Assembly: GCA_008080745.1 (NCBI GenBank)
Contig: SHMX01000001.1
Location: 150,001-182,000, forward strand
Direction: 5' to 3'
From: Candidatus Thorarchaeota archaeon
GTDB lineage: Archaea; Asgardarchaeota; Thorarchaeia; Thorarchaeales; Thorarchaeaceae
DNA: 32,000 nt
Positions 1,568-2,881 of this stretch are shown here, piece by piece; the stretch's first letter is position 1, and every line of letters begins with the position of its first letter. The notes under the pieces were generated by a model, which did not search any database, was not told where the DNA came from, and saw only the letters and a program-made list of their open reading frames with translations. A program made the translations under genes and the position numbers.

Positions 1568-1672
1568 CCCGGTCCACTCCATTTGAAGATTGAATACGAG
1601 TACAATTAAGCCTTTGCTGATAACTATGGGATAAGATTTTTGAGAGAAAAGAACGGTAACCTTGTGATAATC

Positions 1673-2053
1673 ATGAGCGAAAGCGATTTGAAACTTCAAT
1701 TCAACTTTGAGGATGGGCTAACGCTAGAGGGTACCTTAGATAGAGTTTTAGCACCACTAATTGTCGAAGAGATAAAAGTGCGTTTACCTATTGAGGGGCG
1801 AGCTGCTTTGATGAGAGGCGAACTCAAAATAATTTTAGACATATCTAAGGGAAATCTAAAACCTGTCAAGGAAGTCAGTAGAGGAGATATAGCATATATG
1901 CCTCTGGGAGATTCGCTTTGTATTTACTTGAAAGACATGAAGACATTTAGCCCTGTGAATATTTTAGGCCGTATTACATCAACAGATGAGGAGTTAGATC
2001 AGATCGAATCACTTAGAAGGGGAAGTAGAGTCGAAATTAAAAAAATTGGCTGA
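1673..2053 (+). CDS. Cyclophilin-like fold protein (DUF369/TM1367 type)
   Basis: EVSRGDIAYMPLGDSLCIYL and PVNILGRI motifs; about 126 aa from ATG 1673. Confidence 0.8.
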   Translation: MSESDLKLQFNFEDGLTLEGTLDRVLAPLIVEEIKVRLPIEGRAALMRGELKIILDISKGNLKPVKEVSRGDIAYMPLGDSLCIYLKDMKTFSPVNILGRITSTDEELDQIESLRRGSRVEIKKIG

Positions 2054-2060
2054 TTCCATA

Positions 2061-2648
2061 TCACATTCTTTGAAGACTTCGAAGAAGAGCCTCATGTTCA
2101 TCTTTTTCGCTAACTGTGGGGTCCACGACCATTCCAGGCTCATGAGTTTCAATAAATACCTCCATCCCAGAATCCTTCACGCTGGCAAATCCGCTTGCAG
2201 ATAAGGAACGGATTCGTAATTGTGTGGTATTGAATTCTGTTTTCTCAGAAACTTCAACGGAAGGAGTATCTCGACGAAGCTTGCTCTTTGTGATTCTGAT
2301 TTGTTCTTTTAATTCTGCAACTTGTACCTGTAAATCTTTCCGGGATTGACGTTCTTCTTCTAGTTGCGATTTAATATCTTCGTACTCAACGCGTTCAATC
2401 AAATCCTTCTTAGGATCAAGCCATGTGACAGTTGTACCATTAAATCTGCGATTTGTTTCAACCAGATTCAATGCACGAAGCACAGCTAGAACATCATATA
2501 CTCTACGTTTTGGAGTATCAAGCTGCTCAGCTAAGATATCACTTCTAATTCCTTCTTCTCCCTGTTCTTTCAAGACTTTGACTGCTTCTTCTGCTAAATC
2601 AACCAGCTTCACAATTGCACCCCGGATATGTGCAAGAGGTAAATCCAC
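2061..2648 (-). CDS. E2F/DP-like winged-helix transcription factor with coiled coil
   Basis: LAEQLDTPKRRVYDVLAVLRALNLVE...VTW matches the E2F/DP DNA-binding signature (RRxYD, residues 48-52, nt 2493-2507). Heptad coiled coil at about residues 85-125. GTG start preceded by GGAAAGGTG. Confidence 0.8.
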   Translation of the reverse strand: MDLPLAHIRGAIVKLVDLAEEAVKVLKEQGEEGIRSDILAEQLDTPKRRVYDVLAVLRALNLVETNRRFNGTTVTWLDPKKDLIERVEYEDIKSQLEEERQSRKDLQVQVAELKEQIRITKSKLRRDTPSVEVSEKTEFNTTQLRIRSLSASGFASVKDSGMEVFIETHEPGMVVDPTVSEKDEHEALLRSLQRM

Positions 2649-2881
2649 AATGCACCTTTCCAGTTAAACACTCAAAGGAGCTATTTTAGTGTTTGTATTG
2701 TGGTTCCAATTTTTCGAAAATTCTATAAAATAATCCAAACTAATATTATTCGAAATGCCGTTCTATTTTTCGTGATTTGAAAATAGAATTTCTTGAGGAA
2801 TTGCTAAATTGGCGTGACCGACAATTTCATAACACATGTACGGAGGGGCTCAATTAGACTTGTTCGATGGTGGCGCTAAGA

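Follow-up and report, generated by a model that had tools for sequence, protein, structure and literature searches.

The E2F/DP transcription factors drive the G1/S switch in eukaryotes, and their relatives in Asgard archaea are one of the few leads to the origin of cell-cycle transcription. This lead has already been published. Asgard E2F/DP proteins were described by Eme et al. (2023, Nature 618:992, Suppl. 4.1.5; PMC10307638), a section which presents them as having a conserved DNA-binding domain, including the base-contact residues, and no dimerisation domain, and E2F homologs in Asgard genomes have also been mentioned in a review. The gene analysed here lies in a 32,000-nt stretch of DNA (the window; positions 150001-182000 of contig C1) from Candidatus Thorarchaeota archaeon (SHMX01000001.1, assembly GCA_008080745.1), the genome of which is 98% complete. 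It had been singled out from the sequence alone, in a prediction that could not tell whether such Asgard homologs were already catalogued. They are, and this exact protein is among them: its 195-aa sequence is identical to the entry [quoted passage not shown] in the ESP table of Eme et al. (2023). It is thus an already known protein, encoded by a single-copy gene and belonging to the published Asgard E2F/DP family (arCOG02749) as its Thorarchaeia member, and no new family is added. The novelty lies in a tail predicted to pair with itself and in a neighbouring gene kept adjacent across Asgard archaea, together with the probable start codon and a promoter block conserved in Thorarchaeia. Our overall explanation, to which we assign a probability of about 0.78, is that the gene encodes a small sequence-specific DNA-binding regulator, the Thorarchaeia member of the Asgard E2F/DP family.

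The open reading frame was confirmed on the minus strand, which had been left unstated, and runs from a GTG codon at window position 2648, the span 2061-2648 corresponding to contig positions 152061-152648. Every peptide quoted in the original prediction was recovered from its translation, namely IVKLVDLAEE...PKRRVYDVLAVLRALNLVE...VTWLD at residues 12-78, LEEERQSRKDLQVQVAELKEQI at residues 95-116 and EALLRSLQRM at the C-terminus, and the E2F4 and DP strings given there match the alignments to PDB sequences. The position of the start codon was then judged by conservation. A GTG, TTG or ATG codon stands at the “KLV” position (window 2612) in 19 of 21 orthologous loci, and in 20 of the 21 the start is preceded, at a distance of a few nucleotides (mostly 5-6), by GGGGTG or GAGGTG, the exception being locus L023 with just GGGGGA. 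Because of this conserved start codon and the Shine-Dalgarno-like box that accompanies it, the true start is probably the GTG at 2612, giving a protein of 183 aa, and the start used both in the gene model of Eme et al. (2023) and in the ORF call (GTG 2648) probably lies 12 codons too early (window 2612-2648). The features of the locus are collected in Table 1.

Table 1 Features of the E2F/DP-like locus in window coordinates, with residues numbered along the 195-aa ORF
Feature	Position	Strand	Remarks
Cyclophilin-like gene (PF04126)	1640..2053	+	tail-to-tail, stop codon 7 nt from that of the E2F-like gene
E2F/DP-like ORF as called	2061..2648	-	195 aa from GTG 2648
Probable true coding sequence	2061..2612	-	183 aa from GTG 2612; most orthologs begin at MKLV
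C-terminal helix	2067..2099	-	residues 184-194; AlphaFold2
Four-strand beta module	2115..2237	-	residues 138-178; kept in all Asgard relatives
Long helix, predicted parallel in-register coiled coil	2238..2393	-	residues 86-137; AlphaFold2 pLDDT >90 in the centre
E2F_TDP winged-helix DNA-binding domain	2421..2597	-	residues 18-76; Pfam PF02319, 36.1 bits (cut-off 25.7)
RRVYD recognition-helix motif	2493..2507	-	residues 48-52
Shine-Dalgarno-like GGGGTG	2618..2623	-	5 nt before GTG 2612
Conserved promoter block	2681..2720	-	TTTTCGAAAAATTGG at 2720-2706, then CAATACAAACACTAAAATAG at 2700-2681 (BRE/TATA-like)
P-loop gene, 448 aa	2867..4213	+	weak CobW/HypB-like matches

The Pfam profile E2F_TDP (PF02319) matched the protein with 36.1 bits, above its curated gathering cut-off of 25.7 (38 bits in a six-frame search of the genome), whereas the second-best family, TrmB, scored 18.4 bits against its own cut-off of 25.6; E2F_TDP was also matched by all 21 orthologs. 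A profile of 27 diverse Asgard relatives, searched against the PDB (177,635 sequences), retrieved E2F8 (1.1e-12), E2F4 (4.3e-9) and DP-2 (2.7e-3), the remaining matches being coiled coils only, and hhalign against 32 non-redundant eukaryotic E2Fs gave a probability of 98% with an E-value of 2.4e-13. The RRxYD motif and the closing tryptophan that had been pointed out originally proved to be invariant in the 21 orthologs (R48, R49, Y51, D52 and W76), and among 27 pan-Asgard relatives the second and third arginines of RRRxYD (equivalent to R48 and R49), the aspartate and the tryptophan are invariant and the tyrosine nearly so. AlphaFold2, run with the 21 orthologs in the alignment, placed a winged helix at residues 5-76 with a pLDDT of about 85. 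Taken by sequence, these comparisons establish that the N-terminal 65 residues form a genuine winged helix of the E2F type, in which the base-contacting RRxYD helix is intact, and the family assignment made at the outset was thus borne out. The accompanying suggestion that the protein is intermediate between E2F and DP was not supported. The Asgard profile covers the whole domain of E2F4 and E2F8 but just the recognition helix and wing of DP-2, and the choice of V or I within RRxYD varies among the orthologs, where both RRVYD and RRIYD occur; for these reasons the winged helix, judged by its alignments, is E2F-like rather than intermediate.

An E2F likeness arising by chance in a generic archaeal winged-helix regulator of the TrmB/MarR kind, an outcome that the original prediction had itself considered, would be in line with the sub-threshold TrmB match and with a Foldseek comparison of the whole model to the PDB, in which Z-alpha, ArsR/SmtB and MarR folds came first, none of them at E<=1e-3. 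This is scarcely conceivable given that E2F_TDP lies above its cut-off in every ortholog and TrmB below its own, and that the PDB profile search returned only E2F/DP proteins apart from coiled coils, alongside the 98% hhalign probability; as far as sequence evidence allows, the generic reading is refuted. We also weighed a DNA-handling role, in which a winged-helix and coiled-coil protein resembling the Hop2/Mnd1 recombination factors would not be a gene regulator at all. Hop2 homologs do appear among the whole-chain fold matches (E about 2e-3), but they match no better than many other winged-helix proteins, the sequence profiles indicate E2F/DP only and the base-reading RRxYD is invariant, so that we consider such a role very unlikely.

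The E2F/DP family, to which we assign the regulator, is present in most Asgard lineages. E2F_TDP was found above its cut-off in 88 of 201 Asgard genomes and in 38 of the 43 genomes of the family to which the window belongs, usually in a single copy; 14 control genomes had none. When 1.84 billion representatives were searched exhaustively with the profile, just 51 matches were obtained, about 40 of which were small archaeal proteins and the others eukaryote-type E2Fs; the named relatives come from metagenome-assembled genomes of Hel-, Baldr-, Odin-, Borr-, Hod-, Sif- and Heimdallarchaeota. A search for longer family members (437-2000 aa) returned none, which is weak evidence. In keeping with the original prediction, the gene stands by itself: the 98% complete genome holds one E2F_TDP gene, and within it RB_A and E2F_CC-MB were unmatched and the best DP-domain score, 12 bits, was no match. 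Two unusual relatives were seen. In P0124 (257 aa) the winged helix is preceded by about 90 extra N-terminal residues that include two hydrophobic, membrane-like stretches; the protein is either a membrane-tethered form or the product of a mis-called start. P0169 is a complete 180-aa ORF on a 694-bp metagenome contig (L002) with both E2F_TDP and E2F_CC-MB above the Pfam cut-offs; it is small like the archaeal proteins and eukaryote-like in sequence.

Beyond the winged helix, AlphaFold2 predicted the long helix of Table 1, strands at residues 143-148, 154-159, 164-168 and 173-178, and a last helix at residues 184-194. The region 138-176 was of low confidence in the monomer model; when the tail alone was modelled with 41 diverse relatives, four strands and the final helix were obtained at a mean pLDDT of 84.6. 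All archaeal relatives have in common a module some 45 residues long that follows the pattern F..t.L+I+...i.+V..sG.EV.IE...pG..V.P, while the C-terminal helix is present in the Thor-type clade and missing from many distant relatives. The length of the helix that links the winged helix to the beta module is variable, and about one quarter of the cluster representatives lack this helix. A set of short members (P0136, P0142, P0143, P0145, P0147 and P0159-P0161; 87-133 aa) have a winged helix that nearly abuts the beta module, without any coiled coil, and the constant part of the tail is therefore the beta module and not the coiled coil.

The original prediction had also proposed that the coiled coil and the beta-rich region that follows it serve homodimerisation, and this found support in a predicted homodimer. 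The ESMFold2 model reached an ipSAE of 0.46, compared with 0.01 for the best control, a pass to which the model's memory of solved E2F-DP complexes may in part have contributed. The same ipSAE value was attained by 20 of 30 proteins with a one-chain pair as their solved structure and by 1 of 23 with a single-chain structure (counts that hold only roughly here, as our own alignment was used). Three runs agreed in at least 86% of the contacts, with a partner pLDDT of at least 77. Contacts between equivalent residues of the two copies (96:96, 110:110, 113:113 and 117:117) describe a parallel coiled coil in register, and residues 138-149 of one copy contact residues 161-178 of the other, so that the strands are interlocked. 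Two copies are accordingly predicted by the model to pair through a parallel coiled coil and an interlocked beta module. On this modelling, Asgard E2F-like proteins probably do dimerise, against the statement of Eme et al. (2023).

Whether the tail is also related to the marked box of eukaryotic E2F/DP proteins is a separate matter. No match to Pfam E2F_CC-MB (PF16421) or to the DP domain was found at E<=1 in the 21 orthologs, which does not favour the marked box originally proposed, and neither domain was above its cut-off in any of 400 Asgard genomes, nor matched in the host's own. With the winged helix removed, hhalign of the tail (coiled coil and beta part) against 32 eukaryotic CC-MB regions gave a probability of 2.6% (E 0.018), and the beta part alone gave E-values of 0.2-0.3. 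Fold searches with a single-chain model of the tail matched no solved or predicted fold. Two apparent signals were discarded. Weak E2F_CC-MB matches in Asgard genomes (18-20 bits) belonged to unrelated proteins, such as a GrpE-like ORF. A language-model match of residues 134-195 to E2F_CC-MB clusters (0.78 and 0.76, within the whole protein) was ascribed to context leakage, because the same 62 residues given alone yield no usable match.

With every sequence and fold test on the tail alone negative, it is on balance probable that the tail is an Asgard-specific module for dimerisation or partner binding, unrelated to the marked box, and that eukaryotes inherited the winged helix only and gained the CC-MB domain later. 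Inheritance of the winged helix only is also the view given in the supplementary text of Eme et al. (2023; PMC10307638). Such an origin would nevertheless make the same domain order in both lineages a coincidence, and the absence of a dimerisation domain reported in the literature is at odds with the conserved tail and the predicted dimer.

The alternative is that the tail is a homolog of the E2F/DP CC-MB dimerisation domain and that the protein represents the homodimeric state before the duplication that gave E2F and DP. The order and spacing of its parts (winged helix, short linker, parallel coiled coil, beta module) are those of typical E2Fs, the beta module is compact just between two chains, and the gene is single-copy in a genome where no DP is present. 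Moreover, the full-length hhalign alignment continues across the coiled coil and on to the first strands, spanning 135 columns in one constant register in every run (“lrIRa” with “tvIAVKAP” and “EVvIE..pG” with “t.LEVpDP”), and the best AlphaFold DB Swiss-Prot matches of the whole-chain model are typical E2Fs (E2F2, E2f1, E2FB, E2F3 and E2F6), with the DNA-binding domain and CC-MB both aligned at E of about 1e-3. This continuation and these whole-chain matches speak weakly for homology of the tail to CC-MB. Against it stand the results for the tail alone, the missing E2F_CC-MB and DP matches, the language-model match that vanishes with the 62-residue piece, the size of the module, which at about 45 residues and four strands is shorter than the eukaryotic marked box, and the quarter of the cluster representatives that have no coiled coil. 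We regard the “marked box” and “pre-duplication ancestor” readings as possible and marked-box homology of the tail as doubtful. If the CC-MB reading were true, the whole DNA-binding-plus-dimerisation core of E2F/DP would predate eukaryotes.

The surroundings of the gene gave a further lead. The E2F-like gene is monocistronic, divergent from the P-loop gene and convergent with the cyclophilin-like gene (Table 1). In most of the Asgard lineages sampled (loci L003-L059) the cyclophilin-like gene is its neighbour. It adjoins the E2F-like gene tail-to-tail in each of the 20 Thor-family loci, the distance between the stop codons ranging from -4 to 102 nt, and is adjacent in 14 of 19 distant Asgard loci, while, as an internal control, the other Thor neighbours recur in 0-1 of the 19. 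Adjacency judged by coordinates was seen in GTDB families f2, f6, f8, f15, f16, f19 and f21, all convergent, and in f26 on the same strand with 0-13 nt between the genes; it was not seen in families f3, f12 and f25. In genomes with two PF04126 copies, it is the divergent copy that is adjacent; the second copies, which make up a clade of their own, are never adjacent. The solved members of PF04126 are TM1367 and structural-genomics entries. The linked gene is mostly convergent and not co-transcribed. The broadest form of the homology account, in which the coiled coil and interlocking beta module are the ancestral homodimeric CC-MB of E2F/DP, the core predates eukaryotes and the cyclophilin-like neighbour is a partner or regulator, seems to us unlikely. 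The P-loop protein is encoded by the divergent neighbour at every one of the 20 Thor-family loci; with 78-87% identity, its conservation far exceeds that of the E2F-like gene.

Upstream of the gene, the Thor orthologs share a word TCGAAAAATCG, often in several copies, followed by AAYACAAACAYYTAAATA, about 70-110 nt before the start. At this locus, TTTTCGAAAAATTGG is a word of the TCGAAAAATCG type placed just before the BRE/TATA-like ACAAACAyyTAAATA, and weaker copies lie upstream at 2745-2773 (minus strand). CGAAAAA occurs in 18 of the 21 orthologous upstream regions, compared with 5.9% of 593 control regions. The promoter block is unique in its own genome, the BRE/TATA-like block being found nowhere else, and it is therefore not a general promoter element. 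There, the intergenic regions show no enrichment of the promoter word (13 of 80 matches), nor does the word cluster at other genes. The block might act as an operator for either the E2F-like protein or the divergent P-loop gene, and it may serve the latter instead because the intergenic region is shared with that highly conserved gene.

The words bound by eukaryotic-type E2Fs were also sought. TTTSSCGC words are not enriched between genes of the host genome (19 of 142 intergenic, where 10% of the genome is intergenic). Neither the E2F words nor the Thor word occur before the two orc1/cdc6 or the two ftsZ genes, except for one E2F word 297 nt before ftsZ2, and no E2F-type regulon was found in this genome. 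GGCGCC, TTGGCGCC or TTTGGCGC lies within 200 nt upstream of the gene at five loci (L010, L013, L014, L016 and L020), which belong to Baldr/Odin-type, Asgardarchaeum and one Thor-order lineage; these words are absent in the window.

Overall, we propose that the predicted homodimer would place two identical winged helices on DNA, where the protein may read CG-containing half-sites. The gene-specific conserved promoter is suggestive of tight, perhaps auto-, regulation, and the cyclophilin-like gene, its neighbour since early Asgard evolution, may work with the protein or be acted on by it. The question of where cell-cycle transcription came from becomes more testable in three ways: the predicted dimerisation runs contrary to the published statement, the conserved gene-specific promoter block of Thorarchaeia offers a first DNA probe, and the cyclophilin-like gene linked across Asgard classes is a candidate partner or target.

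Set beside the Asgard E2F/DP proteins of Eme et al. (2023), of which it is a member, the protein differs in having a conserved coiled coil and beta module predicted to pair, where the published section presents no dimerisation domain, and in the cyclophilin-like neighbour, which is absent from the text of Suppl. 4.1.5. With DP1/DP2 it shares the RRVYD spelling and the wing tryptophan, but just the recognition helix and wing align (30 profile positions to DP-2, 21 bits), the long insert that precedes the motif in DP is missing, and the DP domain (PF08781) has no match in the protein. The likeness to the typical E2F1-6 (1CF7, E2F4-DP2-DNA) is broader, extending over the winged helix, RRxYD, the closing tryptophan and the order of domains, and these E2Fs are the best whole-chain AlphaFold DB matches. 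They are nevertheless larger (roughly 280-470 aa, compared with about 183 aa), and their CC-MB sequence has no detectable similarity in the archaeal protein. They have a DP partner and a transactivation and Rb-binding tail, neither of which was found here, the protein ending 17 residues after the beta module, and they act as heterodimers, whereas a homodimer is predicted for the archaeal protein. Among solved structures the best match is to E2F7/E2F8 (4YO2), which set two E2F-type winged helices on DNA without DP, as is predicted here; in E2F7/E2F8 the two winged helices belong to one chain, while in the Asgard protein they would be contributed by two chains joined by the coiled coil.
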